From the NCBI GenBank assembly GCA_035559535.1, contig DATMBG010000051.1, positions 496,001 through 520,766 of the forward strand: 24,766 nucleotides of DNA. The letters are read 5' to 3'. The position numbers and the translations under genes are program-made. Shown here one piece after another: positions 1-14,538 of the stretch. Under the pieces are notes generated by a model. The model ran no database searches, was not told the origin of the DNA, and was given only the letters and a program-made list of their open reading frames with translations. Positions within the stretch are counted from its first letter, which is position 1, and each line of letters opens with the position of its first letter. The DNA is from Candidatus Limnocylindrales bacterium. Lineage in GTDB: Bacteria > Moduliflexota > Moduliflexia > Moduliflexales > JAUQPW01.

Positions 1-927
1 CAGGCAATGCGTTATTCTCAGCCAGGTTCCTGGATTCTGGCAGGAATTCTTCCCTATCACGAGCGAGAAGCCATGGTGAGGAATGAACAGAAAGTACTCT
101 TGATGCTGATAGTGGGGATCCATTTGATCCTCATAGGATTAATTTTCTTTGGTTTTCGAAGTCTGGTTCGACCTATCCTCCGCTTAACAGAGGCTTCTCG
201 GGAGATAGCTCGGGGGAAATGGCAGGGGAGAGTACCTGAAACTTCTCGAAGGGATGAAATCGGAGAACTGGCCCGTTCTTTTGAACAAATGATCCTTCAA
301 CGAAAACAGGTTGAAGACAGCTTGATAGAACAAACCCGGGAAATGCACCATCGGATCAAAAACAATCTTCAGATGATTAGCAGTTTATTACAACTTCAGC
401 TACGACGTAAAAACATCCAGGATCCCGAAGCCCTTATCCGATCCACCTTGGAACGTATTCAAAATATTGCCTTAACCCATGAGTTCCTCTCCTGTAGGGA
501 AAAGGATTCCATCCATGCCCTGGATTTGCTTGGTCGAATTGGAGAAGCCTGCCTTAAGACCCTGGTCCAATCCAATCAAACGATCGAAATCTCCGTAACA
601 GGTCAAGACATCTTGATGAATTCGACGACCGCTCTCCCCCTGGCTTTTATCACCCATGAGTTGGTGGTTAATGCGATTAAGCATGGATTTAAAAATCGGG
701 ATAAGGGTTTGATTCAAATACACTTGATCCCAGAAGGTAGCCGGGTTATTTTACGAATCCAGGATGATGGACAGGGTCTTCCCGAAGAAAGTCCCGCCTC
801 CCAGGATTTCTATAACCTGGGACTACAATTGGTCCAACGATTTGTGAGCCGGGATCTAAAAGGGACTTTTCATTTAAGTAAAAACCTTTCCCAAGGAACC
901 ACGGCGCAAATCGTATTCGAACCTTAA
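1..927 (+). CDS. Membrane-bound sensor histidine kinase, HAMP + HisKA_2 + HATPase (PdtaS/EutW-type kinase core); probably 5'-truncated by the window
   Basis: Frame open from base 1; TM helix (VLLMLIVGIHLILIGLIFFG), HAMP (RPILRL...RRDEIGELARSF), H-box EMHHRIKNNLQ typical of HisKA_2, N-box ELVVNAIKHG, G1 DDGQG, G2 LGL. Confidence 0.93.
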   Translation, partial: QAMRYSQPGSWILAGILPYHEREAMVRNEQKVLLMLIVGIHLILIGLIFFGFRSLVRPILRLTEASREIARGKWQGRVPETSRRDEIGELARSFEQMILQRKQVEDSLIEQTREMHHRIKNNLQMISSLLQLQLRRKNIQDPEALIRSTLERIQNIALTHEFLSCREKDSIHALDLLGRIGEACLKTLVQSNQTIEISVTGQDILMNSTTALPLAFITHELVVNAIKHGFKNRDKGLIQIHLIPEGSRVILRIQDDGQGLPEESPASQDFYNLGLQLVQRFVSRDLKGTFHLSKNLSQGTTAQIVFEP

Positions 928-956
928 GTTTATTTTCTATGGCCAGAAAGGAAAAT

Positions 957-1541
957 ATGCCTGAACCATTACGGGTTTTGATTGCAGAAGATGATACGGT
1001 GATTGCTATGGATCTCCGAGAAGCCCTGGAATCCCTGGGGCATCGGGTAATCGGAGAGGCTTCAACGGGAGTGGAAGCCCTTCGACTGGCTCGAGAACTG
1101 AAACCGGATCTCCTTCTGTTGGATATTAAGATGCCGGAACTGGATGGAATAGAAGCTGCTACCAGAATTCTGGCAGAATATCCCCTTGCCATTATCATGC
1201 TTACGGCCTATACCGATGAGGTTTTGATCCAACGGGCAGAAAAAGCCGGGGCTTTAGCGTACTTGGTTAAACCTATCCAGGAGGAAGCTCTAAAACCAGC
1301 TATTCGCGTAGCCATGGCTCGATTCAGAGAACTTCAGGCACTCCGTACCGAGGTCAGTAACTTGAAGGAAGCCCTTGAAGCCAGAAAACTCATCGAACGC
1401 GCCAAAGGAATTTTGATGGAAAAGTTGGGTATATCCGAAGCTGAGGCTATGAAGCGGCTGCAAGAGCAGAGCCGTAACCATCGTAAGAAACTGGTCGAAA
1501 TAGCTAAGGCCATCCTCATGGCTCAAGATCTATTGGCTTAA
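957..1541 (+). CDS. REC-ANTAR response regulator (AmiR/NasT/PdtaR/EutV family RNA-binding antiterminator)
   Basis: RVLIAEDD, phospho-acceptor DLLLLDIKMP, LTA, YLVKP; C-terminal ANTAR signature RKLIERAKGILM...ISEAEAM..L...S; AAGGA at 948-952 favours ATG 957 over ATG 939. Confidence 0.95.
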   Translation: MPEPLRVLIAEDDTVIAMDLREALESLGHRVIGEASTGVEALRLARELKPDLLLLDIKMPELDGIEAATRILAEYPLAIIMLTAYTDEVLIQRAEKAGALAYLVKPIQEEALKPAIRVAMARFRELQALRTEVSNLKEALEARKLIERAKGILMEKLGISEAEAMKRLQEQSRNHRKKLVEIAKAILMAQDLLA

Positions 1542-1712
1542 AAGGTAGAAATCCAAAAAACGAAATTCCTCAAGACCCCAATAAAAATAGAGAATTTCCC
1601 ATGATAGCGTTCTCTCCCCATTTTTCGTCTTCAAGGCGATGGCCATGGACCTTACAGGGGCAAAATTTTTAATAACAGGAAAAAGCCCAGGATAAGAGAA
1701 GAAGGAGTTTAT

Positions 1713-1760
1713 ATGCGAGAGGTAACTCTGGATGAAGAATTGACAAAGATTCTGGAATGA
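1713..1760 (+). CDS. Putative 15-aa small ORF MREVTLDEELTKILE
   Basis: Strong SD GAAGGAG (1701-1707) 5 nt before ATG 1713; TGA 1758-1760; no homology evidence. Confidence 0.3.
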   Translation: MREVTLDEELTKILE

Positions 1761-1772
1761 CTATTTTATAAT
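1740..1772 (+). promoter_or_regulatory. Candidate sigma70 promoter for the ssu-like operon
   Basis: Perfect TTGACA at 1740-1745; TATTTT at 1762-1767 (16-nt spacer) and TATAAT at 1767-1772 (21-nt spacer); -10 assignment ambiguous. Confidence 0.45.
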
Positions 1773-1837
1773 AACAGGAATAAAAAATTACCAGAGTATC
1801 ACAAACCCACGGTTGCTTTGTGATACCCGGCTATGGG

Positions 1838-1882
1838 AGCCTTTTGGGAGAAGTATTCTTTTCTCCAAAAGGCTTTTTTTTT
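1838..1882 (+). terminator. Intrinsic terminator in the leader of the ssu-like operon (possible attenuator)
   Basis: AGCCTTTTGG(G)AGAA ... TTCTCCAAAAGGCT stem followed by a run of T's; lies 65 nt before the ATG at 1947. Confidence 0.85.
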
Positions 1883-1946
1883 GGAACCGAGCCTGAGGTA
1901 AGAAAAATTCTTGTGCCCAGGATTTTAAGGGGGAGGGACAGAAACC

Positions 1947-3017
1947 ATGAATTCTAAAACAGTCAGGATGGTAGCAGAGAGTTTAGGAGGAATTGTTCTC
2001 ATCGTCGGGTTGATACTTCTAACCCTTTACCTATCCCCTGCGGAGTCAGGTGAAAAAGTAAAAATTCGGGTGGGACATTTTCCCAATATTACCCATGCCC
2101 AGGCAGTTATCGGCCATGGATTATCCCGAAAAGGGGAAGGGTGGTTTGAACAGAGATTAGGTCCGGAGTACTCCCTCGAGTGGTTCACTTACAATGCCGG
2201 TCCTTCGGCTATGGAAGCCATTTTTGCCCGGACTGTGGATTTTACCTATGTAGGTCCCAATCCGGCTATTAATGCCTATATAAAATCCAAAGGGGAGGAC
2301 ATTCGGATTATTGCCGGTGCAGCCAGTGGGGGAGCAGCTTTTGTGGTACAACCCGATGGAAGGATTAAGACCGATGCCGATCTTAAAGGCAAAAAAATTG
2401 CAACCCCTCAGCTTGGGAATACACAAGATGTAGCAGCAAGGGCCTATCTTCTCTCTAAAGGTTATAAAGTGACCCCCTCGGGAGGGGATGTATATGTTAT
2501 ACCCACTCAAAATCCAGACCAGCTGGCTTTGTTTCTCAAAGGAGAAGTAGATGGGGTTTGGACCGTAGAACCCTGGGTGACCCGTCTTTTGGTGGAAGGA
2601 AAAGGGGTCATTTACCTTGAAGAAAAGGATCTCTGGAAGGACGGAAAGTACGTAACCACCCATCTTGTGACCAGTGTTCAGTTTCTTAAAGATCATCGAG
2701 ACATTCTTAAAAAATGGATTGCGGCCCATATAGAATTGACCCAATGGATCAACCAGAATCCGGACGAAGCCAAGAAAATCCTTAATGAGGAAATCGCCGT
2801 TGAAACCGGAAAATCTCTTTCGCCCCAGATATTGGAAGGATCCTTCGCACGTCTGGAACTAACCTATAATCCCATTAGGGATTCACTTTTTAAAGCTGCC
2901 GAGGATGCTTTTAAAATTGGTTTCCTGGGCAAAGAAAAACCGGATTTATCTCGGATTTATGATCTCTCTATTTTAAATGAAGTTTTGAGAGAAAAAGGGC
3001 TGCCGGAGATTCCCTAA
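1947..3017 (+). CDS. ssuA: ABC transporter substrate-binding protein, SsuA/NitT-TauT family (sulfonate/sulfate-type)
   Basis: N-terminal hydrophobic signal/anchor; motifs RVGHFPNITHAQA, NAGPSAMEA, YVGPNPAINAY, IATPQLGNTQDVA, EPW; SD GGGAGG; exact substrate not determinable. Confidence 0.88.
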   Translation: MNSKTVRMVAESLGGIVLIVGLILLTLYLSPAESGEKVKIRVGHFPNITHAQAVIGHGLSRKGEGWFEQRLGPEYSLEWFTYNAGPSAMEAIFARTVDFTYVGPNPAINAYIKSKGEDIRIIAGAASGGAAFVVQPDGRIKTDADLKGKKIATPQLGNTQDVAARAYLLSKGYKVTPSGGDVYVIPTQNPDQLALFLKGEVDGVWTVEPWVTRLLVEGKGVIYLEEKDLWKDGKYVTTHLVTSVQFLKDHRDILKKWIAAHIELTQWINQNPDEAKKILNEEIAVETGKSLSPQILEGSFARLELTYNPIRDSLFKAAEDAFKIGFLGKEKPDLSRIYDLSILNEVLREKGLPEIP

Positions 3018-3042
3018 TTTAGCACAAGAAGGAGGTAAGAAT

Positions 3043-3855
3043 TTGAGTAGCCTGGTAAAAAATCAGCTTTTAAGGGAGGAAACTCCTCCAAAGCTCATGA
3101 TCGATGGGATAACAAAATCTTTCCAGACTAAGGCGGGTCGTACCCAGGCTTTAGAGGAGGTTTCTTTAAGTTTGAAAGAAGGAGAATTTGTCTGTCTGGT
3201 AGGTCCTTCAGGGTGTGGGAAATCGACCCTACTCAATATCATTGCCGGACTGGAGAAACCCGATTCCGGAACCATTCTGGTCGATGGAAAACCTGTGACA
3301 GGTCCAGGGAGGGATCGGGGGATGATGTTCCAGGAGCCGGCTCTTTTTCCCTGGTTAAATGTACTGGGAAATGTTTTATTCGGATTAAAGTTGAAACCCG
3401 GTTTGACCCAGGCGGAGTGTCGCGAGGTAGCCGAATTTTATCTCCAACTGGTTCATCTAGAACAGTTTAAGCAAGCCCACATCCATGAACTCTCGGGTGG
3501 GATGAAGCAACGGGTCGCTCTGGCACGAGCCCTGGCTCCTAATCCCAGGATTTTACTCATGGATGAACCCTTTACCGCCTTGGATGCCATGACCCGGGAA
3601 CAGCTTTACACAGATCTCCAGGAAATTTGGGAGAAACGACGAAAAACTATTGTCTTTGTAACCCACAACGTTCGGGAGGCTTGTTGTTTAGGGGATCGGG
3701 TGGTTATTTTTTCCCCTCGACCGGGCCGGATCTGCGAGGAGTTTCAAATCCATTTGAAACGACCCCGAGATATCAACGACGTAGAACTGGCCCGCTATGC
3801 CACGGAAGTTACACAGGCTTTAAGAACCCATATGCTTAGCAAAGCGGAGGTGTAA
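3043..3855 (+). CDS. ssuB: ABC transporter ATP-binding protein, SsuB/TauB/NrtD family
   Basis: Walker A GPSGCGKST, signature LSGGMKQR, Walker B LLMDEPF, VTHN; TTG start after strong SD AAGGAGGT. Confidence 0.92.
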   Translation: MSSLVKNQLLREETPPKLMIDGITKSFQTKAGRTQALEEVSLSLKEGEFVCLVGPSGCGKSTLLNIIAGLEKPDSGTILVDGKPVTGPGRDRGMMFQEPALFPWLNVLGNVLFGLKLKPGLTQAECREVAEFYLQLVHLEQFKQAHIHELSGGMKQRVALARALAPNPRILLMDEPFTALDAMTREQLYTDLQEIWEKRRKTIVFVTHNVREACCLGDRVVIFSPRPGRICEEFQIHLKRPRDINDVELARYATEVTQALRTHMLSKAEV

Positions 3856-3857
3856 CC

Positions 3858-4625
3858 ATGCCAAGAACCTTAAAAATGACCGGCTTCTTTATTCTGCTCC
3901 TTCTGGTCTGGGAATGGGTCTACAGAATGCACATTTATTCTCCGGTTCTTTTTCCTTCTCCTATAGAGGTGGGACGATATATCGTCGAAGGGTTTAAGGA
4001 CCATTCCCTCCTGGAGGGAATTTATATTACTCTACGTCGATTGCTACTGGGTTACTCAATCTCTGTGGCAATAGGAATTCCCCTGGGCCTACTGCTGGCA
4101 CAATCTCCTCTTCTCCAAGATACCCTGGGAGCTTTAACCCTGGGATTACAAAATCTGCCCAGTATTTGCTGGACTCCTCTGGCCATTTTGTGGATCGGAC
4201 AAAATGAAACGGCGATTCTGTTCATTGTGGTTATGGGAGCCCTGGGTTCAATTATTATTTCCACTCAAGCGGGAGTTCAAAGTGTTTCCCCTATTTATGT
4301 ACGGGCCGCAAGAACCATGGGATCCCGAGGATTACACACCTATTTAAAGGTCAGCATTCCGGCCTCTCTTCCGGCCATTGTAACGGGTATGAAAATGGGA
4401 TGGTCTTTTGCCTGGAGGTCTTTGATGGCCGGAGAAATGATTCTCTTCACCATCGGAGTTTCTGGCCTGGGTCATATCCTCCACATGGGACGTGAACTAC
4501 TGGATATGCCCCGGGTGATAGGGGTTATGCTCATTATCATTGCCATTGGGTTAATAACCGATAAGGCCCTTTTTGGCCGCTGGGAAGCCCATATCCATGA
4601 GCGATGGGGAACTTCAAAGGCTTGA
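3858..4625 (+). CDS. ssuC: ABC transporter permease, SsuC/TauC family
   Basis: Multiple TM segments, LFPSP motif, EAA-like loop AARTMGS, WRSLMAGEM. Confidence 0.92.
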   Translation: MPRTLKMTGFFILLLLVWEWVYRMHIYSPVLFPSPIEVGRYIVEGFKDHSLLEGIYITLRRLLLGYSISVAIGIPLGLLLAQSPLLQDTLGALTLGLQNLPSICWTPLAILWIGQNETAILFIVVMGALGSIIISTQAGVQSVSPIYVRAARTMGSRGLHTYLKVSIPASLPAIVTGMKMGWSFAWRSLMAGEMILFTIGVSGLGHILHMGRELLDMPRVIGVMLIIIAIGLITDKALFGRWEAHIHERWGTSKA

Positions 4626-5051: not shown

Positions 5052-5261
5052 ATGCAAATCAGTGCCCGGAATGTCTTAAAAGGCAAAGTAAAAAGTATCA
5101 CCCACGGCTTGGTAAATTCAGAGGTTATTGTTGAGTTACCCGGTGGAACCGAAATCGTTTCGGTAATCACCAAAACCTCAGCCGAAAAGTTAGGTTTAAC
5201 CGAAGGCAAAGAAATCTATGTGGTTATTAAAGCAACCCATGTCATGATTGCCACAGACTGA
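5052..5261 (+). CDS. mop: TOBE-domain molybdate-binding protein (molbindin, Mop family)
   Basis: MQISARNVLKGKV...VITKTSAEKLGL..G...VVIKATHV, the classic single Mop domain; SD AGGAG. Confidence 0.93.
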   Translation: MQISARNVLKGKVKSITHGLVNSEVIVELPGGTEIVSVITKTSAEKLGLTEGKEIYVVIKATHVMIATD

Positions 5262-5295
5262 ATAAGATATTGCCTGAAGGGAAGTAACACCGGTT

Positions 5296-6372
5296 ATGGA
5301 TGCCAGATCCGAGGTCTGGATTGAAGTACAGGGTAAAGTCATTTTAAATAACAAAATGGCCAGGCTCCTAAAGGCCATTGATGAATCCGGTTCCTTAAGA
5401 AGGGCGGTAGATACCTGTGGACTATCCTATCGAAATGCCTGGGGGCTCTTACGTGAGATGGAAGCAGCCTCGGGAATTAAATTTGTACACATGCGGGTAG
5501 GTGGGAGGGGAGGGACCCATTGTTTTCTTACCCAGCAAGGGAAGGAGTGGCTTTCTAGGTATTTGACCTTCCAAAGAAACGTAGAGAATTTCATTCGGGA
5601 CGAGTTTGATAAAACCTTCAAATGTTTACGACTGGCCACCACCAGTTGTTCTGTCAGTTCCGGATTATTAACGGCTTTGCTTCCCCCCTTTGAGAAACGA
5701 TTTAATATCAAAGTGGATGTATTTCCCGTCGGCACAAGAAAAGCCTTAGAGTTAGCTTCCTTAGGACAGGTAGACGCCATTTTGGTTCATACCCGGAAAT
5801 TAGAGGAACACTCCGTTCCTCTGGACTATGGAGTCAATCGACGGGATATCCTGTATAGACAGTTTGTTTTAGTAGGACCGACCCAGGATCCGGCTCAAGT
5901 CCGGCAGGCCCGAACTGCTGTAGAAGCCTTCAAACGTATAGCCGACAAACAGGTCCCCTTCCTCTCCCGGGGAGATAACTCCGGTACTTACCTCAAGGAG
6001 AAAGAAATCTGGGCCTTAGCCCACATAAACCCTCAAGGGGACTGGTATATAAAAACAGGAAAACAGCTCTCGGAGATCCTTGAGCTTGCTCAGGAGCGAA
6101 GGGCTTACCTCCTTGCAGAGCGAAACAAATTCCTGGCTTTGAAAGAATTGTCTGATCTGGACCTCCTCTTTGAAGGAGATCCCATCCTTTACAATCTCTA
6201 CAGTATCATGGCCATTGACCCTGTCAAACACCCTCAGGTCAATTACGTAATGGCCATGACTTTGATCGGCTGGTTGACTTCTCAAGAACAAAAAACTATT
6301 CAACAATTCAAGAATGAAGGATCCCGGCAATTTCTATTCCACCCGGTGCTTCTCTCTGAAGTAAAGAGTTAG
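5296..6372 (+). CDS. ModE-type winged-HTH regulator fused to a TupA-like (tungstate-binding PBP2) domain
   Basis: N-terminus LLKAIDESGSLRRAVDTCGLSYRNAWGLL...GGRGG...LT (ModE N-domain); C-terminus LRLATT...SGLL..LLP.FE, VGT.KAL, DAILVH, FVLVGP..DPA, FLSRGDNSGT (TupA-like); no signal peptide. Confidence 0.85.
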   Translation: MDARSEVWIEVQGKVILNNKMARLLKAIDESGSLRRAVDTCGLSYRNAWGLLREMEAASGIKFVHMRVGGRGGTHCFLTQQGKEWLSRYLTFQRNVENFIRDEFDKTFKCLRLATTSCSVSSGLLTALLPPFEKRFNIKVDVFPVGTRKALELASLGQVDAILVHTRKLEEHSVPLDYGVNRRDILYRQFVLVGPTQDPAQVRQARTAVEAFKRIADKQVPFLSRGDNSGTYLKEKEIWALAHINPQGDWYIKTGKQLSEILELAQERRAYLLAERNKFLALKELSDLDLLFEGDPILYNLYSIMAIDPVKHPQVNYVMAMTLIGWLTSQEQKTIQQFKNEGSRQFLFHPVLLSEVKS

Positions 6373-6397
6373 ACGAAGGATAAAGAAAGGAGCAGAT

Positions 6398-7174
6398 ATG
6401 AAAAAACTAAATGTCTTCCTGGGTTTTCTAATTAGTCTCATCATCTTGAGTAATGTTTTTGGAACCGTCAGCCTGGCTCAAGACAAAATAACCGTTTACG
6501 TGGCCGCCAGCCTCACCAATGCCCTTAAAGAGCTTGCAACCCTCTATGAACAGAGGATGGGAGTAAAAATTCAGACTTCCTTTGCCTCGTCATCTGTCTT
6601 AGCCAAACAGATTGAAGCCGGAGCTCCCGCAGACATTTTCATATCCGCCGATCTTGAGTGGATGGATTATTTAGAGGGAAAAAACAAAATCGAACCGAAG
6701 AGCCGCCGGAATTTGTTGAGTAATTCCCTTGTAGTGATTGCTCCTAAGGGTAAAGCCTTTGCCCTTAAAATGGAAAAGGGTTTTAACTTCGCTGAAGCTT
6801 TTCACGGTAAATTGGCCATGGGAGATCCGGATCATGTACCGGCCGGGAAGTATGGAAAAGAAGCGCTGATTTATATGGGATGGTGGGACGCCCTTACTCC
6901 AAGGATCGTAAGGGGGGAAAATGTTCGTGCAGCTTTAGCCTTTGTAGAGCGCGGAGAAGCTGATGCAGGGATTGTGTATGCAACCGATGCTAAACAGTCT
7001 GATAAAGTCGAAGTCCTGGGAACTTTTCCCGAGGAGAGCCATAAACCGATTACCTATCCTGCCGCATTGATACAGGGTGCCGGAAGCTCGGCTAAAGCGT
7101 TTTTAGATTTTCTTTCCTCCGAACAGGCCGGAAATATTTTTACCAAATACGGTTTTATCGTCTTAAAACATTAG
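6398..7174 (+). CDS. modA: Molybdate ABC transporter substrate-binding protein
   Basis: Signal peptide; AASLTNAL, FASSSVLAKQIEAGAPADIFISA, DPDHVPAGKYG, NVRAAL, GIVYATD. Confidence 0.96.
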   Translation: MKKLNVFLGFLISLIILSNVFGTVSLAQDKITVYVAASLTNALKELATLYEQRMGVKIQTSFASSSVLAKQIEAGAPADIFISADLEWMDYLEGKNKIEPKSRRNLLSNSLVVIAPKGKAFALKMEKGFNFAEAFHGKLAMGDPDHVPAGKYGKEALIYMGWWDALTPRIVRGENVRAALAFVERGEADAGIVYATDAKQSDKVEVLGTFPEESHKPITYPAALIQGAGSSAKAFLDFLSSEQAGNIFTKYGFIVLKH

Positions 7175-7290
7175 ACCCTCGCAGGCAGGCAGATGAGAAG
7201 TAACCATAAAAACAAAATAAAGATTAAGGATCCTTCCCCTACCAGAGGTGAGAAGCCTTTTCAGGTTGTTAGGGTGAATTTTTGTAGACA

Positions 7291-8004
7291 TTGACGGATA
7301 TGAATTTCTCCTTGTTTCCACTCACACCTGAAGAAGTCTCTGCGATTTGGCTTTCTATTAAAGTAGGGTTCTGGTGTGCAGGGATCACTTCCATTCCGGG
7401 CGTGATCTGCGGTTGGCTTTTGGCTAAAAAGAATTTTTTCGGAAAATCCCTGCTGGACGGATTTTTTCATTTATCCTTGGTTCTCCCTCCCGTTGTAGTG
7501 GGATATCTTTTGCTTTTAACCTTCGGCAATCAAGGGTTTTTAGGTAAATGGCTTCGAGAAATGCTGGGTATTTCCATTGCTTTTACCTGGAAGGGAGCCG
7601 TATTAGCTTCCGCGGTTATGGGATTTCCTCTTATGGTTCGCTCGGTCCGCCTCTCTATGGAACTGGTGGAACCAAAGCTAGAAGAAGCTGCCCGTACCCT
7701 CGGAGCCGGACCTTTATGGGTTTTTTTTACCGTCACCCTACCCCTTGCGTTTCCAGGAATCCTGGTCGGTCTGATTCTCTCTTTTGCTCGAAGTTTGGGA
7801 GAATTTGGGGCTACCATTACCTTTGTATCCAACATTGTAGGAGAAACGCAGACGCTACCTTTAGCCATCTATACCTATACCCAAACCCCCCAGGGGGATA
7901 AGCCTGCCCTTCGTCTGGTGATCTTGTCCCTGACTCTGGCCTTCATGGCTTTGATGACCAGTGAAATACTGGCCAAAAGGGTTGAAAAATTACTGGGAAG
8001 GTAG
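7291..8004 (+). CDS. modB: Molybdate ABC transporter permease (start may be ATG 7300)
   Basis: LVLPPVVVGYLLL, EEAARTLGA, FARSLGEFGAT, TQTLPLAIY. Confidence 0.96.
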   Translation: MTDMNFSLFPLTPEEVSAIWLSIKVGFWCAGITSIPGVICGWLLAKKNFFGKSLLDGFFHLSLVLPPVVVGYLLLLTFGNQGFLGKWLREMLGISIAFTWKGAVLASAVMGFPLMVRSVRLSMELVEPKLEEAARTLGAGPLWVFFTVTLPLAFPGILVGLILSFARSLGEFGATITFVSNIVGETQTLPLAIYTYTQTPQGDKPALRLVILSLTLAFMALMTSEILAKRVEKLLGR

Positions 8005-8017
8005 AAGACAGGATAAC

Positions 8018-9112
8018 TTGTTAGATTTAGACATCCAATTAAGCCGCGGTAGTTTCAGTTTGGAGGCAAGCTTGAGACTCCATGAACCCATCACGGGCGT
8101 TTTTGGACCCTCGGGTTCCGGCAAGAGTACGCTCCTCCATGTCATTGCAGGTCTTATCACTCCTCAAGCGGGTAAAATCAAACTGGGAGAGATCCTGCTC
8201 TATGATACAGAAAAGAAAATTAACCTGCCGCCCCATAAACGAAGAATCGGATATGTATTTCAGGATGGTCAACTTTTTCCCCATCTTTCTGTAAAAAACA
8301 ATCTCCTCTATGGTTATTGTCTTGTTCCTCGAAACCAAAGACGTTTTAAACTTGATCAAATCGTAAATTTGCTGGAAATTCAATCCCTACTTTCTCGCTA
8401 TCCCCGAAACCTCTCTGGGGGCGAGAAGCAAAGGGTTGCTCTAGGCCGAGCCCTTTTAACGTCTCCCAGGCTCCTGTTATTGGACGAACCTCTGGCTTCT
8501 CTAGATGAAGGCCTTAAGAGGCAGATTCTGCCTTTTTTGAAAAGAATTGCCATTGAAACCCATATCCCCATGATTTATGTGAGCCATGCCATCGGCGAAA
8601 TTCTCCAGTTAACCGATCAAATGGTCGTAATTAAGAATGGACGAATTCTTGGTCAGGGTTCTTTTCTGAAAGTTATGAAAGATGAAAAAATCCTGGAACT
8701 GGCTAAATTATCCGGGCTGGAGAATGTCATACCCGTAGAGGTGGTAGGACACGAGCGGGAGTTGGGACTCACCTTGGCAAAGCTCCACCATCAAACCTTG
8801 AATCTACCCTTCTCCTCTATTCCAGAGGGAGAAAGAACCTTTGTATCGGTTCGACCAGAAGATATTGCCCTGGCTATTCAGCCTGTGACAGGCACTTCCA
8901 TTCAAAATCAGCTTGAAGGAGAGATTCTCGGAATGACGGATGTGGGCAACCGGATATTGGTGGAGGTAGATATCGGCGTCGTGGTACTGGCAGAATTAAC
9001 CATTAAAGCCTTCCATGATCTTAATCTAAAAGAAGGTATGCCCGTTTACTGCTTAATTAAAACCCATGCCTTTACTTACCTGGGAAAACCCTTGAATAGA
9101 GAGGTTTCTTAA
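8018..9112 (+). CDS. modC: Molybdate ABC transporter ATP-binding protein with C-terminal TOBE domain
   Basis: GPSGSGKST, LSGGEKQRVALGRALL, LLLDEP, C-terminal SIQNQLEG...L.LKEG..VY.LIK; TTG 8018 after AGGA preferred over 7961, which overlaps modB. Confidence 0.95.
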   Translation: MLDLDIQLSRGSFSLEASLRLHEPITGVFGPSGSGKSTLLHVIAGLITPQAGKIKLGEILLYDTEKKINLPPHKRRIGYVFQDGQLFPHLSVKNNLLYGYCLVPRNQRRFKLDQIVNLLEIQSLLSRYPRNLSGGEKQRVALGRALLTSPRLLLLDEPLASLDEGLKRQILPFLKRIAIETHIPMIYVSHAIGEILQLTDQMVVIKNGRILGQGSFLKVMKDEKILELAKLSGLENVIPVEVVGHERELGLTLAKLHHQTLNLPFSSIPEGERTFVSVRPEDIALAIQPVTGTSIQNQLEGEILGMTDVGNRILVEVDIGVVVLAELTIKAFHDLNLKEGMPVYCLIKTHAFTYLGKPLNREVS

Positions 9113-9753
9113 TTCTGTAATCCCAGCTTCTCCAGGATAGTTAACTTTTTCTCCTGAACAGATTTCAGTTCCCCTTTTTTGAGAAGATCTAAAATATCCC
9201 AATCTAAAATTTGATGAACAAGCGTTCTTCTCAGAAAGGGGTCTTTAACCTGCCGGTGTATGTTTTCCCTTAATTCTCCCAGGATTTTCAGAAAGGGTTC
9301 GTACTCCTCCCCAAATTCCCTTTCCAGTTTTTCTCGAATTTTTTTAGCCAACGCCGGACTCTTGCCACTGGTAGAAATACTCAACAACAGATCACCTCGC
9401 TTAACCAAAGCCGGAACAATAAAGTTACAATATCTGGGACAATCCACTACATTAACCAGGATGTTTCTTCTCGAAGCATCCCGATAAACCCGGGCATTAA
9501 CCTCAGGTCGGTTTGTAGCGGCTATGACGAGGAACGCCTGGTCCAGATCTTTCTCGTCATATTTTTTGGGTAGATACGTGACCTTTTTCTGATCAATTAA
9601 ATCTTTCAATCCTGCGGTCACTTCGGGACTGATGACCATTACCGAGGCTTCACAGGCTAACAAAGAATTGACTTTCTGCTCGGCTATCTCTCCTCCGCCT
9701 ATAACCAGGCATTTTCGGCCTTTTAATTCGAGGCAAATGGGATAATAAGACAC
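9109..9753 (-). CDS. sirC: Precorrin-2 dehydrogenase / sirohydrochlorin ferrochelatase (SirC/Met8p, CysG N-terminal-like)
   Basis: YYPICLEL.G..CLVIGGGEIA Rossmann motif, VNVVD.P..CNF, ISTSGKSPALAK; likely GTG start at 9753 (ORF track extends to 9810); no methyltransferase domain. Confidence 0.9.
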   Translation of the reverse strand: MSYYPICLELKGRKCLVIGGGEIAEQKVNSLLACEASVMVISPEVTAGLKDLIDQKKVTYLPKKYDEKDLDQAFLVIAATNRPEVNARVYRDASRRNILVNVVDCPRYCNFIVPALVKRGDLLLSISTSGKSPALAKKIREKLEREFGEEYEPFLKILGELRENIHRQVKDPFLRRTLVHQILDWDILDLLKKGELKSVQEKKLTILEKLGLQN

Positions 9754-9781
9754 CGCAATCCATAAGGAGTAGGCCCTAGAC

Positions 9782-9811
9782 CATGGGAAGTAAAACCGGC
9801 TACCTCCCATG
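9782..9811. other. Intercistronic inverted repeat (hairpin)
   Basis: CATGGGAAGTA-AAACCGGC-TACCTCCCATG, 11-bp stem, one position of which pairs only as G-U on the minus-strand transcript. Confidence 0.6.
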
Positions 9812-9836
9812 TACGGTCATAGTCTACGGCCCATCC

Positions 9837-10286
9837 TTAAATACCTACCTCAATATTTTCTATCCTGGCCCCATCTGCATCGATACCCAAGATGATATGA
9901 CAAAGGTGGGTATCGATGGTCAGGCGATAGGCTCCTGGATTTTTAAGGGAGAAAGAAATATTTCGGATTAATTGATCCTTTAGGGTGGTCAGCGACCGAT
10001 TGGTTTCTTTGATCAAACTCAGGATCCTGGAGCCTCTTAAAGTTTTGTGATAAATTCGTAGAAAAACTTGCTCATCTTCACGATCGTAAACCTTCCCGAT
10101 TCTACCTGTTTCAAAACCTATTTCCAGGAGTCTTTCCACATAGCCCATGAGTTCTTCCGGAACTTCTCCCTTTTCAAGGGATTCCAGGAGTGAAATATAT
10201 TTATTACGGGTTTCTCCCTGAAGCTGCCCAGTAAGGGCTTTTATTTCCCGTATAAGGAGTTCTTTTTCTTGAAGATCTATTTCCAT
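9837..10286 (-). CDS. Hypothetical protein in the sulfate-assimilation operon
   Basis: 149-aa ORF, co-oriented between cysH and sirC, protein-like composition; no motif recognised. Confidence 0.8.
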   Translation of the reverse strand: MEIDLQEKELLIREIKALTGQLQGETRNKYISLLESLEKGEVPEELMGYVERLLEIGFETGRIGKVYDREDEQVFLRIYHKTLRGSRILSLIKETNRSLTTLKDQLIRNISFSLKNPGAYRLTIDTHLCHIILGIDADGARIENIEVGI

Positions 10287-10371
10287 TTAAAAAGTTTTCA
10301 GGTATCCATCCTTAAAGGGCTTAAAGTGAGCTAGAGTTGGAGAAAACTCTAGCCATTCTAAGCCCTTTCCT

Positions 10372-11178
10372 TCATCCTTCCTCTTCTTTCAATAAAGCTT
10401 CCAGTTCGTGCTCAAATCCGCCTGTGAGAAGGCTGCAATGCATACCACACTCCTTAGGTGCATTAATTTCCCACCACCAGCGGCCTGCCCGGGGATTCTC
10501 GCCGGGTTTAACAGGACGCGTGCAGGGATAGCAACCGATACTGGTATAACCTTTATCGTAAAGTCTGTTGTAGGGAACCCGATGAGTTCTGATATAATCC
10601 CAAACCTCTTCCTCCGTCCAATCGGCCAGAGGATTAACCTTCACCACACCCCCGTGATCGTGATCCAGCTCGATTTTCCGAATATTGGTTCGGGAGGCCC
10701 ATTGATCTCTTCTCAATCCGGTTATCCAGGCGTCCAACCCAGTTAAAGCCCGAAGTAAGGGGCGCACCTTTCGAACTTCGCAGCACATCAATCGGAGTTT
10801 AACACTTCGGTAAAAGAGGTTGACTCCATGTTTTTTGACCAACTTCTCCACCTCGTGGGTATTGGGATAGTAGACCTCTATGTTGATTCCATATTGCCCC
10901 CTTACTTCCTCCATGAGTTCGTAAGTCTCCTCTGGAAGTCGACCGGTATCCAGGGTGATGACCCGTACCTCGGGATTGATTCGCCAGGCCATATCCAGAA
11001 GAACCATCCCATCTATTTGAAAACTGGTAATCAACGCCAATCTCGGATGAAACTCTTGGAAAGCCCATCGGATGACTTCTGTTGGTTCCTGGTCGTCGAA
11101 CTGAACGGCCAGTTCTCCGACTTCTAAGTCGTCTAACTTTCGTCGAGGTTCTGATTGTAATAAGTTGGTCGTTTCCAA
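10372..11178 (-). CDS. cysH: Adenosine 5'-phosphosulfate (APS) reductase, [4Fe-4S] type, CysH family
   Basis: LDTGRLPEETY, CC pair (MCCEVRKV), WITGLRRDQ, CxxC (SIGCYPCT), RAGRWWWE, C-terminal ECGMH; TTG start directly after the sir stop, SD GGAGG. Confidence 0.95.
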   Translation of the reverse strand: METTNLLQSEPRRKLDDLEVGELAVQFDDQEPTEVIRWAFQEFHPRLALITSFQIDGMVLLDMAWRINPEVRVITLDTGRLPEETYELMEEVRGQYGINIEVYYPNTHEVEKLVKKHGVNLFYRSVKLRLMCCEVRKVRPLLRALTGLDAWITGLRRDQWASRTNIRKIELDHDHGGVVKVNPLADWTEEEVWDYIRTHRVPYNRLYDKGYTSIGCYPCTRPVKPGENPRAGRWWWEINAPKECGMHCSLLTGGFEHELEALLKEEEG

Positions 11179-11179
11179 T

Positions 11180-12796
11180 TTATTTTCCCTCCATTAAATT
11201 TTTAAGTTGTTCGTCCTGATGTTTGAGACAAAATTCTTGAAAACTTATAGCCTCCTTTTCTTTCCGGTAAGCCTGATAAGCCCGGATCAACCTCTCCAGG
11301 TAGTATTTAACTTGATCTGCCGGTACTCTTCGTCCTATGGCCTTGCCGATAAGGGGCTTATTTCCCAATCCACCTCCCAGGAAGATATCATAAGCTTCTA
11401 TTTTTTCTCCTTCAGGAGATCGGGCCGTGGTCCCTTGAAGACCGATATCTCCCACCCAGTGGGCCCCACAGGCATGGGGACACCCGTCCAGGTAAATCCG
11501 AAGATCGTCGACTCCTTCCCCCATGGCATTCTCCAGATGGGAAATGATCTCGGCAAGTCTTCCCTTTGTTTCGGTGACGGCAAAGTTACAATGAGGTTGT
11601 CCGGTACAGGCAATTCCGGGTCCCCGGAGCCGACTGACTTTGAGTGTAAAACCTATTGCTTCCATTCTTTCAAGAACCTGGGTTAGTCGGGATTCGGGAA
11701 TATAGGTGATAATAAAATTCTGCTCTCGGGTTAGACGAATATCCTTTCCCTCCTGGGCAACAAGCTCTGCTATCTGAATCATCTGCTCACTGCTAAGGCG
11801 TCCTGTGAACACCGGAAACCCCAGGTAGTAGAATCCCCTTTGTTTCTGTTCACAAATACCCAGGTGGGAAGTTCGACCAACAGATTGCTCCAGCAGAGGT
11901 AGTTCCGGGAAATCTTCCAGCTTCCTTCCTAACTTGTTCTCAATGAGGTTTCGAAAAGCTTCCGGACCGTAATCATCGACCATGAACTTCAGGCGTGCCT
12001 TGATAAAAGATCGGCGATAGGTCAGGTCATCTTTCCAGACATCCAGAATGGCCCGAATCACAGGTAAAGTATCTGCCATGGAAACGAAAACCCCCAACGG
12101 TTTTGCAATCCTTGGTACTGTTGAGAGACCTCCTCCGACCCAAACTGTAAAGCCCAGTTGCTCCTGACCTGCTACCATCCTTTTAACCCCTACAAAGGCC
12201 TGGCAGTGAATCTCTGGGGCATTACATCGATAGGCACAGGCGGAAAGTGTTATTTTATGTTTCCTGGGAAGATCTGAATATTCTGGATTCCCATCCAGGA
12301 ATCGGGCAATTTCCCTTACAAGGGGCGATGCATCGAACAATTCCTGCCTATCCAATCCGGCTACCGGACACCCGGTTATATTTCTTACCACATCCCCACA
12401 GGCTCCCACCGTGGATAAACCTGCTTCCTGAAGGATTTGGAAGATCTCCGGCAAGGTTTCCAGTCGAATCCAGTGAAGTTGAATATCCTGTCGGGTCGTA
12501 ATTTCTCCATAGCCCTTACCAAATTTCCTGGAAATCTCTCCGATGGTTCTTAATTTTTGAGGGGTCAAAATGCCGTTAGGGATCTTAATACGCATCATGA
12601 AAGTACCCATTTTAGGTTTGTCATGATACAACCCGTACCATTGAAGACGAACCATATCTTCCTCGGGAATATCCTCGTAGCCTTTCTGGATCAGTTCAGG
12701 AAGTTCGTGGATAATCTCCAACGGCATTTTCTCCTTCTTCAACCGTTCTCGAGGATTCTTTTTGATGATTTGATCATACGTCCCTATTTCACCCAT
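11180..12796 (-). CDS. sir: Siroheme ferredoxin-dependent sulfite (nitrite/sulfite) reductase
   Basis: LQWYGLY, ITTRQDIQLHW, GACGDVVRN, LPRKHKI, siroheme/Fe-S ligands ACTGQPHCNFA and GCPHACG; SD AAGGAG; context with cysH indicates sulfite. Confidence 0.92.
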   Translation of the reverse strand: MGEIGTYDQIIKKNPRERLKKEKMPLEIIHELPELIQKGYEDIPEEDMVRLQWYGLYHDKPKMGTFMMRIKIPNGILTPQKLRTIGEISRKFGKGYGEITTRQDIQLHWIRLETLPEIFQILQEAGLSTVGACGDVVRNITGCPVAGLDRQELFDASPLVREIARFLDGNPEYSDLPRKHKITLSACAYRCNAPEIHCQAFVGVKRMVAGQEQLGFTVWVGGGLSTVPRIAKPLGVFVSMADTLPVIRAILDVWKDDLTYRRSFIKARLKFMVDDYGPEAFRNLIENKLGRKLEDFPELPLLEQSVGRTSHLGICEQKQRGFYYLGFPVFTGRLSSEQMIQIAELVAQEGKDIRLTREQNFIITYIPESRLTQVLERMEAIGFTLKVSRLRGPGIACTGQPHCNFAVTETKGRLAEIISHLENAMGEGVDDLRIYLDGCPHACGAHWVGDIGLQGTTARSPEGEKIEAYDIFLGGGLGNKPLIGKAIGRRVPADQVKYYLERLIRAYQAYRKEKEAISFQEFCLKHQDEQLKNLMEGK

Positions 12797-12854
12797 ATCT
12801 TTCTCCTTGAGTTTGCTTACCTGGTTTCAAGAAAGGTCCTCCGTATCTTAAACA

Positions 12855-12883
12855 CAAAAAGTTATGGGTCTAAAGTCCATAAT
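12855..12883 (-). terminator. Weak terminator-like hairpin in the sir leader
   Basis: Minus strand TTATGG-actttagac-CCATAA followed by CTTTTTG. Confidence 0.35.
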
Positions 12884-13131
12884 TCCCTTCTCTCTTTCCA
12901 GGGGATAACCTTCAGGGTTCTAATAATTCCCTTTTAAAATTTTCCGTGGGTTATTTTCCCCACATCATCTGCTCATGGGACTAAAGACCTTTGATAAAGA
13001 ACCCGGCATAGACAGAAAACTGCCGGCAAAACCCTTGGACCCCAATAGGTACCAAAATAAAATTTTAAGAAACTTGAGTTATTTGCCGCTCATAACGGTT
13101 TATTGGGAAATTTTTATGAAGGAACTCAGAA

Positions 13132-13350
13132 CTAGCTACAACAACACATGTTGCAACAACAGGGGGAGGACATGGAGGCTCGGAGGAAGGTTAAAGTATG
13201 GGGGGAGGTTTTCACAGAGGCAGGTAATACACTTCCCTTAAAGGGAACCAGGGAATAGTAAGGATAGGATAAACAATCACTCCTCGAATTACTCCTCAAG
13301 GGTATTGCTCCATTGAAACGATAGATTGTAGATGGATTAATCGTTTTCAT
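13132..13350 (-). CDS. Putative cysteine-rich leader peptide (72 aa, ends MSSPCCCNMCCCS)
   Basis: ATG at 13350 preceded by AGGACGG; last codons TGT TGT TGC AAC ATG TGT TGT TGT AGC TAG; same strand as and 335 nt upstream of sir. Confidence 0.6.
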   Translation of the reverse strand: MKTINPSTIYRFNGAIPLRSNSRSDCLSYPYYSLVPFKGSVLPASVKTSPHTLTFLRASMSSPCCCNMCCCS

Positions 13351-13498
13351 AGTTAAACCGTCCTACTTTAGGATCTCCGGTTCTTGCAGGATTCCAGGAT
13401 CCATAAAATAAGAAATTCTTATATTGATATAAGATTCCCCTACGACCTTTAGATCATAACGGGGGATCAATCCCATTCAAGCTCACAGCTATGTATTA

Positions 13499-13525
13499 AG
13501 TATACCAGGGGATGAAAACTGTCAA
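13499..13525 (-). promoter_or_regulatory. Candidate sigma70 promoter for the leader ORF and sir-cysH operon
   Basis: Minus strand TTGACA (13525-13520), 15-nt spacer, extended -10 TG-G-TATACT (13504-13499); spacer is short. Confidence 0.5.
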
Positions 13526-13973
13526 TAGGATTTTATCATTTTTTCAGCAGTAAACCAATTCAGCTGAAGGTTTTGAGTATTTGTAATAACCTTTGATCTC
13601 TAACTCGGATACAAAGGACACCCCGGTTAGAGGGATAATCGAAATCCCCTTTGACTAAGAGGTAGTTTTTTCTAACCTGACCCCCTCATCCCTCCTGATC
13701 TCTCTGGAGGATAAAAAGAATAGGTGAGCGAGGAATCGGAAAAGCAAGACTTGAAGGCTCCCCGGCTTATAAAGCCGGCAAATTTAATATTCCTTTCATT
13801 ATTTTTTTATATTTTTTTAATCATTAAGCCCTATCCTTGACTTAAGTAAAGATAAATGAGACTTCTTCTCGTATTAAGAGTTCTAACTATCAGAATAACA
13901 GCTTTTTTATTATCATTTGTATTGTTTTATGCTATTCGATTATTTTTAGTATTTTTTACCCTATAAATTTCCG

Positions 13974-14003
13974 TTGACTACTTAGGGAATATGTGCATAG
14001 AAT
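13974..14003 (+). promoter_or_regulatory. Candidate sigma70 promoter for the receiver-domain gene
   Basis: TTGACT-N18-TAGAAT preceded by a very AT-rich tract. Confidence 0.45.
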
Positions 14004-14145
14004 ATATCACAAAAATTCTTCCGACCGGTTTTAATTTATTCCTATCTTAACTCATAGATTCTTAATATGAGTCAATTGGATTGAATGATAAGGATAAAGA
14101 TACAAAGGTAGTGGGTAGTCCCAGTAAAAACAAGGAGGCGTTACC

Positions 14146-14538
14146 ATGCTAGAAACAGATCATTTTCCCAAGGCTTTGGTCATAGACTCGGATCCCAGTA
14201 GTCGAAAAAGTCTGGAGGAAATGCTGAATGAACAGGGTTATCAGGTCAGAGGGGTTGGGGGAATAGGTGAAGCAGCCCCGTTTTTTAAGGATGAAAATTT
14301 TTCTCTGATTATCGGTGAGTTTGGATTTCCAGGATCCGATGAAACCCAAATTTTAGAATTTGTGCGGCGTTTAAGATCCAAAGCCAAAATAATTTTGATT
14401 GCTCCTAACTTAGGGGCGGAAATGTATATTAAAGCTCGAGCTTATGGAGCCTTCGATTGTATCGACAAATCCTTAGAGAAATCGGCTTTAAGGGAAATTA
14501 TCAAACTAAAAAACTATGACCTTTCCCATATTTTGTGA
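14146..14538 (+). CDS. Single-domain response regulator (atypical receiver, Glu at the phospho-acceptor position)
   Basis: REC-fold pattern KALVIDSD...L...GY.V...SLIIGEFGFP...GAFDCIDK; SD AAGGAGG. Confidence 0.85.
   Translation: MLETDHFPKALVIDSDPSSRKSLEEMLNEQGYQVRGVGGIGEAAPFFKDENFSLIIGEFGFPGSDETQILEFVRRLRSKAKIILIAPNLGAEMYIKARAYGAFDCIDKSLEKSALREIIKLKNYDLSHIL

Follow-up and report, generated by a model that had tools for sequence, protein, structure and literature searches.

The window analysed here is a 24,766-nt stretch of contig C51 from genome G000 (5.6 Mb, 95.8% complete). On its minus strand it carries a four-gene operon (9109..12796) for a NirA-family reductase, an adenosine 5'-phosphosulfate (APS) reductase, an open reading frame (ORF) of 149 amino acids (aa) and a sirohaem protein, and this report concerns the leader of that operon, in which a small upstream ORF (uORF) ends in a run of cysteine codons. 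The first gene, sir (11180-12796), specifies by Pfam and NCBIfam a sirohaem sulfite/nitrite reductase of the NIR_SIR/NirA family. It is followed by a gene for a thioredoxin-type APS/PAPS (3'-phosphoadenosine 5'-phosphosulfate) reductase (10372-11178), identified by Pfam and by the NCBIfam model APS_reductase TIGR02055 (268.9 against a cut-off of 235.3). The 149-aa ORF (9837-10286), between the APS reductase and sirohaem genes, belongs to no Pfam or NCBIfam family, and the last gene (9109-9810) encodes a sirohaem synthase protein resembling the N-terminal part of CysG, with an NCBIfam cysG_Nterm match above the cut-off. The sir ATG (12794-12796) is preceded by the ribosome-binding site (RBS) AAGGAG at 12803-12808, the two together spanning 12794..12808.

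The uORF consists of 72 codons (13132..13350, minus strand; MKT...SPHTLTFL...MSSPCCCNMCCCS* in the ORF list and its translation) and shares its strand with the sulfur-assimilation genes, a conserved promoter (13499-13525) being upstream of it and sir downstream. Its last nine sense codons translate as CCCNMCCCS, that is, six Cys and one Met, directly before the stop. The Cys codons are numbers 64-66 and 69-71 (13138..13161; TGT TGT TGC AAC ATG TGT TGT TGT); after them come a Ser codon and TAG at 13132-13137. At least two and typically three or more consecutive Cys codons near the stop, the feature by which poly-Cys leaders are recognized, are found here in CCCNMCCCS*. From the end of the stop at 13132 to the sir ATG at 12796 there are 335 nt (12797..13131) without a long ORF, an untranslated spacer which we propose as a zone of premature termination. 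An earlier note on this DNA had reported the 72-aa ORF and its CCCNMCCCS end, the 335 nt of non-coding sequence, the promoter-like element at 13499-13525 and a place in the leader of a cysteine-pathway operon, all of which were borne out. It had suggested that the uORF is a cysteine-sensing attenuator, acting either by RNA refolding or by masking a Rho loading site. We think it probable that the uORF is a Cys-sensing attenuator of some kind for the sir/APS reductase/sirohaem operon. Of the two mechanisms, masking of a Rho loading site appears to be the one favoured by the data, which are comparisons of DNA and protein sequences, and is the model we prefer.

Comparisons were made chiefly with G001, a genus-mate of the source genome, and with L089, an outgroup metagenome contig. 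The promoter block (13499..13550) comprises an A/T-rich upstream part, TTGACA at 13525-13520, a spacer of 15 nt and TGgTATACT, with the -10 hexamer at 13504-13499. Transcription is predicted to start near 13492, giving the uORF a predicted 5' untranslated region (UTR) of about 140 nt. The block was not listed by the consensus scan because its 15-nt spacer falls outside the limit of 16-18 nt. It is 87.7% identical in G001, and it aligns to the promoter region of L089 (55-nt local alignment, E 1.6e-5 in that pairwise comparison). Since the block is homologous in L089, where it stands about 175 nt before sir, it is to be regarded as the sir promoter, and the uORF as lying inside the sir leader. 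A second, weaker promoter-like site (TTGAAT-16-TATGAT, 13453..13480, minus strand; 9/12 matches in the scan) lies inside the 5' UTR and is also present in G001; promoter-like sites are no more numerous in the region than in shuffled sequences. No -10 box placed to start transcription at M1 or at M60 was seen in the sequence, the promoter scan or the G000/G001 alignment.

Between the promoter and the uORF, folding reveals a conserved hairpin (13355..13418, minus strand) ending about 5 nt before the uORF ATG. Its energy is -21.7 kcal/mol in G000 (z -3.24) and -24.2 kcal/mol in G001 (z -4.05), and its 21 consensus pairs show three one-sided changes that preserve pairing, none that break it and none that are compensatory. 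Its architecture has been kept though the 5' UTRs of the two genomes are only 75.6% identical. The Shine-Dalgarno (SD)-like site on which the earlier note relied, AGGA, is indeed present 10 nt before the ATG in G000, but it reads AAGA in G001 and is buried in the 3' arm of this hairpin. By a crude count, an SD-like motif precedes 37.7% of the long ORFs of G000 as against 16.1% in a control window, and with only that proportion of long ORFs so equipped the lack of an SD does not disqualify the uORF.

Nine genomes of this phylum are in the collection, and this sir with its leader is found only in G000 and G001. The two leaders are 83% identical over 778 nt, with homology beginning at about 13574 of the window. 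The G001 uORF is intact, with the same frame, ATG, length and stop, and ends ...MSSPCCCRMCCCS. Nineteen of its codons have changed, 7 synonymously and 12 non-synonymously; within the Cys run the changes are one synonymous substitution (TGC to TGT) and the replacement of the intervening Asn by Arg. A HMMER pass over 1.84 billion representatives added one further real relative, P0003 (31 aa), the other three matches being unrelated repeat proteins. Its cluster-mate P0006 (103 aa) aligns from its MKT to all 72 residues without an indel and with 58% identity, so that a third orthologue is known, as the proteins P0003/P0006. Across the three, 40 of the 72 columns are invariant, among them M1-K2-T3, F12-N13-G14, S49-P-H-T-L-T-F-L56, M60-S-S, all six Cys, M68 and S72, and 32 vary. 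The six Cys, the ATG and the length of 72 codons are retained in 3/3 orthologues, and the Cys run is thus conserved while other positions of the peptide vary, a pattern for which the earlier note had proposed to look in related genomes. The G001 leader is immediately preceded, on its own strand, by a gene for a second NirA-family reductase, 36% identical to Sir (L008:1423-2994); G000 has neither this Sir paralogue nor a remnant of it upstream of the leader.

As a neutral yardstick we used the 4-fold degenerate sites of sir, of which 16.8% differ between G000 and G001 (ca. 83% identity). By comparison, identity is 93.3% in uORF codons 1-25 (13276..13350), the best-conserved part of the leader, 83.3% in codons 26-45, 90.5% in the C-rich codons 46-59, and 92.9% from codon 60 to the stop. 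The spacer stands at 77.7% (13131-12900) and 84.5% (12899-12797), and its alignment contains 7 gap columns. In the uORF frame the proportion of synonymous differences (pS) is 0.164, close to the value at the 4-fold sites of sir (0.168), and that of non-synonymous differences (pN) is 0.084, a ratio of 0.51 against 1.19 and 0.71 in the two other frames, but these figures are based on 22 changes and are suggestive only. Broken down by segment, codons 1-25 have a ratio of 0.19 (the other frames 0.68 and 0.41 there, from only 5 changes), codons 26-59 a nearly neutral 0.88, and codons 60-72 one of 0.35. These values, an invariant ATG and the lack of indels in the third orthologue speak together for real translation from M1.

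The same data bear on the possibility that the uORF specifies a genuine protein of 72 aa, Cys-rich at its tail, which is co-expressed with the operon and does not regulate it; it might, for instance, bind metal or sulfur as a partner of the reductase. ATG, frame and exact length persist in 3/3 orthologues at 58-83% identity, with the blocks MKT, FNG.IP.R, SPHTLTFL and MSS; the pN/pS in codons 1-25 is 0.19, and the uORF was called by the gene callers of two sources. Against this, no homologue outside the group exists among the 1.84 billion representatives or 5.8 billion clusters, and a word-based search returned no homologue of the peptide, leaving P0003 and P0006 as the only real matches. The peptide belongs to no Pfam or NCBIfam family, has no conserved SD, evolves almost neutrally over codons 26-59 and is absent from L089 despite the common operon promoter. 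We regard a free-standing small protein as a rather unlikely explanation.

Cysteine makes up 0.84% of the codons in the long ORFs of G000, and in all six frames of the genome a density of 5 or more Cys per 9 codons is reached by 22 windows. We looked at 13 of them, those whose stop-to-stop frames are shortest. Twelve lie inside or overlap ORFs of 82-1052 aa in other frames; the uORF is the sole one without a longer overlapping ORF, being overlapped only by an 88-aa antisense ORF of no Pfam family, and its Cys run is the densest intergenic one in the 5.6-Mb genome. When the motif was loosened to a CCC type, in intergenic frames no more than 600 nt upstream of a same-strand ORF of at least 110 aa, 22 frames were found, of which 13 are copies of one palindromic repeat. 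Among the nine others the uORF alone precedes a sulfur gene, none of the seven annotated proteins downstream of the other non-repeat frames being one. A genome-wide "Cys ribulon" was accordingly rejected, as there is no second CCC-type frame before an annotated sulfur gene. An origin of the leader from a repeat or mobile element was likewise rejected, 12797-13525 having no second copy in the genome. With a single locus, placed where a cysteine sensor makes sense, chance is not a serious explanation of the Cys run, and we consider such an origin very unlikely.

In a wider form of that explanation, the uORF would have arisen by chance within inserted or degenerate DNA, and sir would have a promoter of its own in the spacer. 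L089 does show that the operon can work with a leader of 175 nt, TGTTGTTG is a low-complexity word, and a TAAGAT box about 60 nt before sir is kept in G001 (noted by eye; the scan did not report it). Set against these are the conservation of Cys run, frame and length in three orthologues, the standing of the run as a genome-wide outlier, the lack of a repeat copy of the leader in the genome and a minus strand in which, at its threshold, the scan picked out nothing promoter-like from 12797 to 13131. We consider a chance ORF of this kind highly improbable.

Directly 5' of the Cys codons is a C-rich, G-poor tract (13161..13220, minus strand; CCTTCCTCCGAGCCTCCATGTCCTCCCCC), which is a candidate Rho loading site. 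Within it lie several CCUCC motifs, as well as codon 60, an in-frame ATG (13171-13173). The excess of C over G is 24 in its 60 nt, a value reached by 0.12% of the windows of the genome on either strand, and the 78 nt before the Cys codons contain 31 C and 11 G in both G000 and G001. The tract to which the earlier note had drawn attention is therefore a genome-level outlier in composition, and a conserved one. G000 also encodes Rho (a Rho_RNA_bind match of 120.7 bits in a frame of 436 aa). The elements expected of attenuation of the tna type are thus present, namely a C-rich tract beside the stall site, Rho, and an untranslated spacer of 335 nt. A spacer that evolves neutrally and accepts indels would be tolerated by a zone of Rho termination, and not by a precise RNA switch, and so fits Rho. 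Taken together, the conserved C-rich tract abutting the stall site, the long neutral spacer and the absence of a conserved terminator fit tna-type Rho attenuation.

The principal alternative keeps the same sensor with another output: stalling would refold the leader and either block a weak intrinsic terminator, as in the trp and his operons, or free the sir RBS, as with Ms5788A of Mycobacterium smegmatis. The Cys codons (TGTTGCAACA) are self-complementary, as the earlier note had observed, and form a 9-bp hairpin in the G000 fold, where the local fold of 13066-13165 has a z of -2.87. The hairpin is lost in G001, in which the corresponding fold has a different structure and a z of +0.18. A conserved switch right after the uORF was rejected on these grounds, the local folds differing and that of G001 being no better than shuffles. 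Each genome has a small spacer hairpin beside a U-rich stretch. That of G000 is a weak hairpin at about 12993-13026 with a 6-bp stem, a 12-nt loop and a U-rich tail, found in this genome only, and that of G001 is a different 6-bp hairpin (TAAGCGTTTCGCTTG + AAGTTTTCTG). The two are not homologous, the number of terminator-like sites lies within the shuffle range in both genomes, and the scan returned no terminator-like site in the G000 spacer; a conserved intrinsic terminator of the trp/his type was thus not found.

With respect to the RBS, the CCUCC motifs of the C-rich tract can pair with the GGAG of the sir RBS, and in mycobacteria the mechanism is a duplex of Cys codons and SD (10.1101/834739). 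It is the C-rich tract that takes part in the strongest pairing of leader and sir RBS (-16.7 kcal/mol); this value was matched, however, by 29 of 100 shuffled RBS sequences, and sequestration of the RBS by the C-rich tract or the Cys codons was rejected as no better than these controls. A Cys-tract/SD duplex as in the Ms5788A subclass was not found across a distance of 335 nt and a spacer at neutral identity. The whole-leader fold of G000 has a z of only -1.62 against shuffles, the minimum-energy folds of G000 and G001 differ, and the two-genome consensus fold has one compensatory pair in 163, which is not informative. The "long structured leader" of the earlier note is therefore not supported by the two DNA sequences compared, the spacer being at 77.7%/84.5% identity where neutral sites stand at about 83%. 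Nor is its RNA-refolding switch, for which neither a conserved terminator nor an RBS-sequestering duplex was found. At five other sir loci, described below, a Cys-run ORF does stand before a GC-rich hairpin and U-rich tail; at the present locus we judge refolding an unlikely output.

No Rfam family reached its gathering score in the window, and the region 12600-14200 gave only chance-level matches, with E above 3. This bears on another form of control, by a protein or small RNA that would bind 13276-13350 or the 5' hairpin, with the Cys run as a by-product or of minor importance. Conservation at the nucleotide level is not confined to the Cys codons: it peaks in codons 1-25 (93.3%) and extends to the architecture of the 5' hairpin, and the promoter-proximal block is common to L089. 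No known RNA family matches, however, and such control would leave six conserved Cys codons before a cysteine-pathway operon unexplained. We think it improbable.

To return to the Rho model, its premises are observed: the uORF, its Cys run and the conservation of that run, the tract with its outlying composition, a rho gene, and a spacer in which no conserved structure was found. Translation of the uORF, stalling within it, its co-transcription with sir and any role of Rho are what we infer. Transcription would begin at the conserved promoter, near 13492, and a ribosome would then translate the uORF. When charged tRNA-Cys is scarce, it would stall on the six Cys codons at the uORF end, and the stalled and queued ribosomes would cover the C-rich tract, so that Rho could not load and RNA polymerase would continue across the 335-nt spacer into sir. 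With ample cysteine, the ribosome would leave at the TAG, the tract would be bare, and Rho would load and terminate transcription in the spacer. For this whole model, sensor and masked Rho loading site together, we would claim slightly less than an even chance. The block SPHTLTFL would be in the exit tunnel when the ribosome is at the Cys codons, which leaves room for a contribution by an arrest peptide. It is conceivable, though we would not expect it, that a nascent-chain segment (K47, SPHTLTFL and MSS) and the six-Cys hunger site form a stall module which hides the Rho site, a tna-like device switching on a biosynthetic operon and acquired with about 500 nt of leader by one genus-level group of a 9-genome phylum. 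With its long conserved ORF, extreme C-rich tract and lack of a terminator, the locus is a natural test case for the coupling of codon-hunger stalling to Rho. It is also a reminder for annotation that the regulator of an operon can reside in a 700-nt "intergenic" leader.

Several observations weigh against this interpretation. The closest outgroup, L089 (Sir 79% identical, with the homologous promoter), has a sir leader of only about 175 nt, in which there is neither a Cys-run ORF nor a pair of Cys codons in any frame. The earlier note had named the absence of a Cys-run ORF from orthologous leaders as an outcome that would speak against it; the run is present in the three orthologues and absent from L089. 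The uORF element is confined to one genus-level group, and the ca. 500 nt holding it would represent a lineage-specific gain, or a loss in L089. In G000 itself neither sat nor either of the two best cysK-like genes has a Cys pair or a Cys-run uORF upstream; SATase_N has no match in this 95.8%-complete genome. The AGGA is not conserved and is paired in a stable hairpin, so that initiation at M1 may be poor, and there may be a weak promoter inside the spacer. The C-rich tract also encodes the invariant SPHTLTFL and could be conserved for the peptide, C-richness alone is no proof of a rut site, and the pN/pS argument carries the caution given with its figures. Of the attenuator originally proposed, what stands is a conserved Cys run in the leader of a cysteine-pathway operon, with a conserved C-rich tract of outlying composition beside it and Rho encoded in the genome; the structured leader, the SD-like site and the situation in L089 do not agree with it. 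As an observation apart, the 175-nt sir leader of L089 (L089:1320-1500) is very G-rich, with GGGG runs and no Rfam match, and may hold a different, undescribed control element.

To our knowledge, cysteine-sensing leader ORFs have been shown experimentally in mycobacteria only. Rv2391 of M. tuberculosis we take to be sirA, the sulfite reductase gene of a sirA-cysH operon. In M. smegmatis, poly-Cys small ORFs (sORFs) are experimentally established as attenuators responding to cysteine, and their Cys codons form pairs with the following gene's SD (10.1101/834739, Canestrari et al. 2020). Leaderless polycysteine sORFs named in that paper and in a second one are Ms5788A and, in M. tuberculosis, Rv2391A, Rv2334A, Rv0815A and Rv0485A (10.1101/834739; PMC13096801), and the latter counts Rv2391A among the attenuators of the M. 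tuberculosis Cys response (PMC13096801). As with the uORF, these are short ORFs that end in a Cys run and an immediate stop, co-directional with and upstream of cysteine-pathway genes, and the proposed sensor is likewise a ribosome pausing at limiting tRNA-Cys. If the identity of sirA given above is correct, the operon controlled by Rv2391A is the same as the one described here. Unlike the leaderless mycobacterial sORFs, the uORF is leadered, its sole conserved promoter being predicted from sequence about 140 nt upstream of the ATG, with a stable hairpin in the predicted UTR. It also differs in having 72 codons with conserved non-Cys blocks and a stop 335 nt from the RBS, in that a Cys-codon/SD duplex of the Ms5788A kind is not beyond chance, and in being a single locus in a host phylum of 9 genomes rather than part of a multi-operon "ribulon".

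In E. coli's tna operon the tnaC leader is followed by a rut site at which Rho acts, and a spacer of about 220 nt separates leader and structural genes. TnaC stalls at its stop codon on free tryptophan and so induces a catabolic operon. Similarities to the present locus are a leader ORF followed by a long untranslated spacer (ca. 220 against 335 nt) without an intrinsic terminator, and a C-rich site near the ORF end which a stalled ribosome hides from Rho, as we propose here. The differences are that in our case the ribosome would stall at hungry Cys codons, with induction of a biosynthetic operon as the result, and that the C-rich tract is inside the ORF, 5' of the stall site. A Rho-dependent mode, with the tna operon as the analogy, was proposed in 2005 for terminator-less cys leaders of actinobacteria (PMC1262725). 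The Rhodobacterales motif uORFC-8-2, a Cys-Cys uORF found with a terminator before cysS (PMC8632094), and the trp, his and leu leaders resemble our case in having a run of cognate codons in the leader ORF of an amino acid-dependent gene. Unlike it, they have a conserved terminator/antiterminator right after the ORF, and none is conserved here. In the literature searched, supplements apart, we found no report of Cys-run leaders before sir outside the Actinobacteria, only the mycobacterial and actinobacterial work and the Rhodobacterales cysS motif.

Such leaders were nevertheless found in a survey of sir loci. Of 160 loci 155 were tabulated; L077, L152 and L167, in which the match starts well inside the gene, were left out, and the twin loci of L009 were treated as duplicates. 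After loci with less than 225 nt upstream had been dropped and identical upstream sequences counted once, 132 upstream regions of up to 450 nt each remained. A Cys-run frame occurs in six of these on the sir strand, as against two of 132 on the opposite (control) strand. One of the six is the genus-mate, which leaves five of 131 loci outside the genus, whose record labels are Blastocatellia, Dehalococcoidia, Tectomicrobia and, twice, Actinomycetota: L015:2217-2453, L050:2249-2426, L082:~2180-2440, L063:~2100-2430 and L066:~2100-2430. All five have a TTGACA box (a full promoter-like site by scan in L015 and L050, none in L082), a frame with 3-5 consecutive Cys (the start codon being evident in four of five, not in L066) and a GC-rich hairpin whose U-rich tail stops 20-40 nt short of the sir start. 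The stem is 17 bp in L050 (z -7.55) and 15 bp in L015. Leaders with the layout of classical cysteine attenuators thus stand before sir under several labelled taxa, and the present locus is the odd one out. The present locus and the five classical cases together suggest that ribosome-based cysteine sensing of sulfite reduction arose repeatedly, with different outputs. The earlier note had considered a 72-aa version unusual: the length is conserved in three orthologues and is not accidental, but the novelty is smaller than was assumed, since poly-Cys control is known in mycobacteria and classical versions stand at five other sir loci.

A number of minor features were recorded in passing. The palindromic repeat which recurred among the CCC-type frames is about 120 nt long and has long G/C-rich arms around a GTTGCTGCTGCTGAA centre, flanked by TTTAGTAGGTG and TACTAAAT; the TGCTGCTGC centre mimics a tiny Cys-run frame. 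At least 13 copies exist, all of them intergenic, on contigs C8, C13, C22, C32, C36, C40, C41, C44, C51 (at 447754) and C55 of G000, and none is in the window. A second, shorter dispersed repeat, ca. 30-40 nt in length, is present upstream of the promoter at about 13655-13695 of the window, with 17 other genome matches at 81-96% identity. On the plus strand of contig C42 (56881-57039), a stop-to-stop frame of at least 45 aa ends ...GEIYQCPDPNCGCEITVTKAPASGKGGNLPPRCCCGKEMMLKSKQ and lies 135 nt upstream of a 334-aa ORF; it looks like a genuine small Cys-rich, perhaps metal-binding, protein.

Other genes lie on the plus strand of the window, at 5052-9112 and 7-4625. Those convergent with the sir operon specify a mini-protein with a TOBE domain, a regulator of the HTH_1/PBP_like_2 kind and an ABC transporter (SBP_bac_11) whose ATPase is TOBE-tailed; the transporter looks to be of the molybdate or sulfate type. 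Further upstream are genes for a histidine kinase, an ANTAR response regulator and an NMT1-type ABC transporter.

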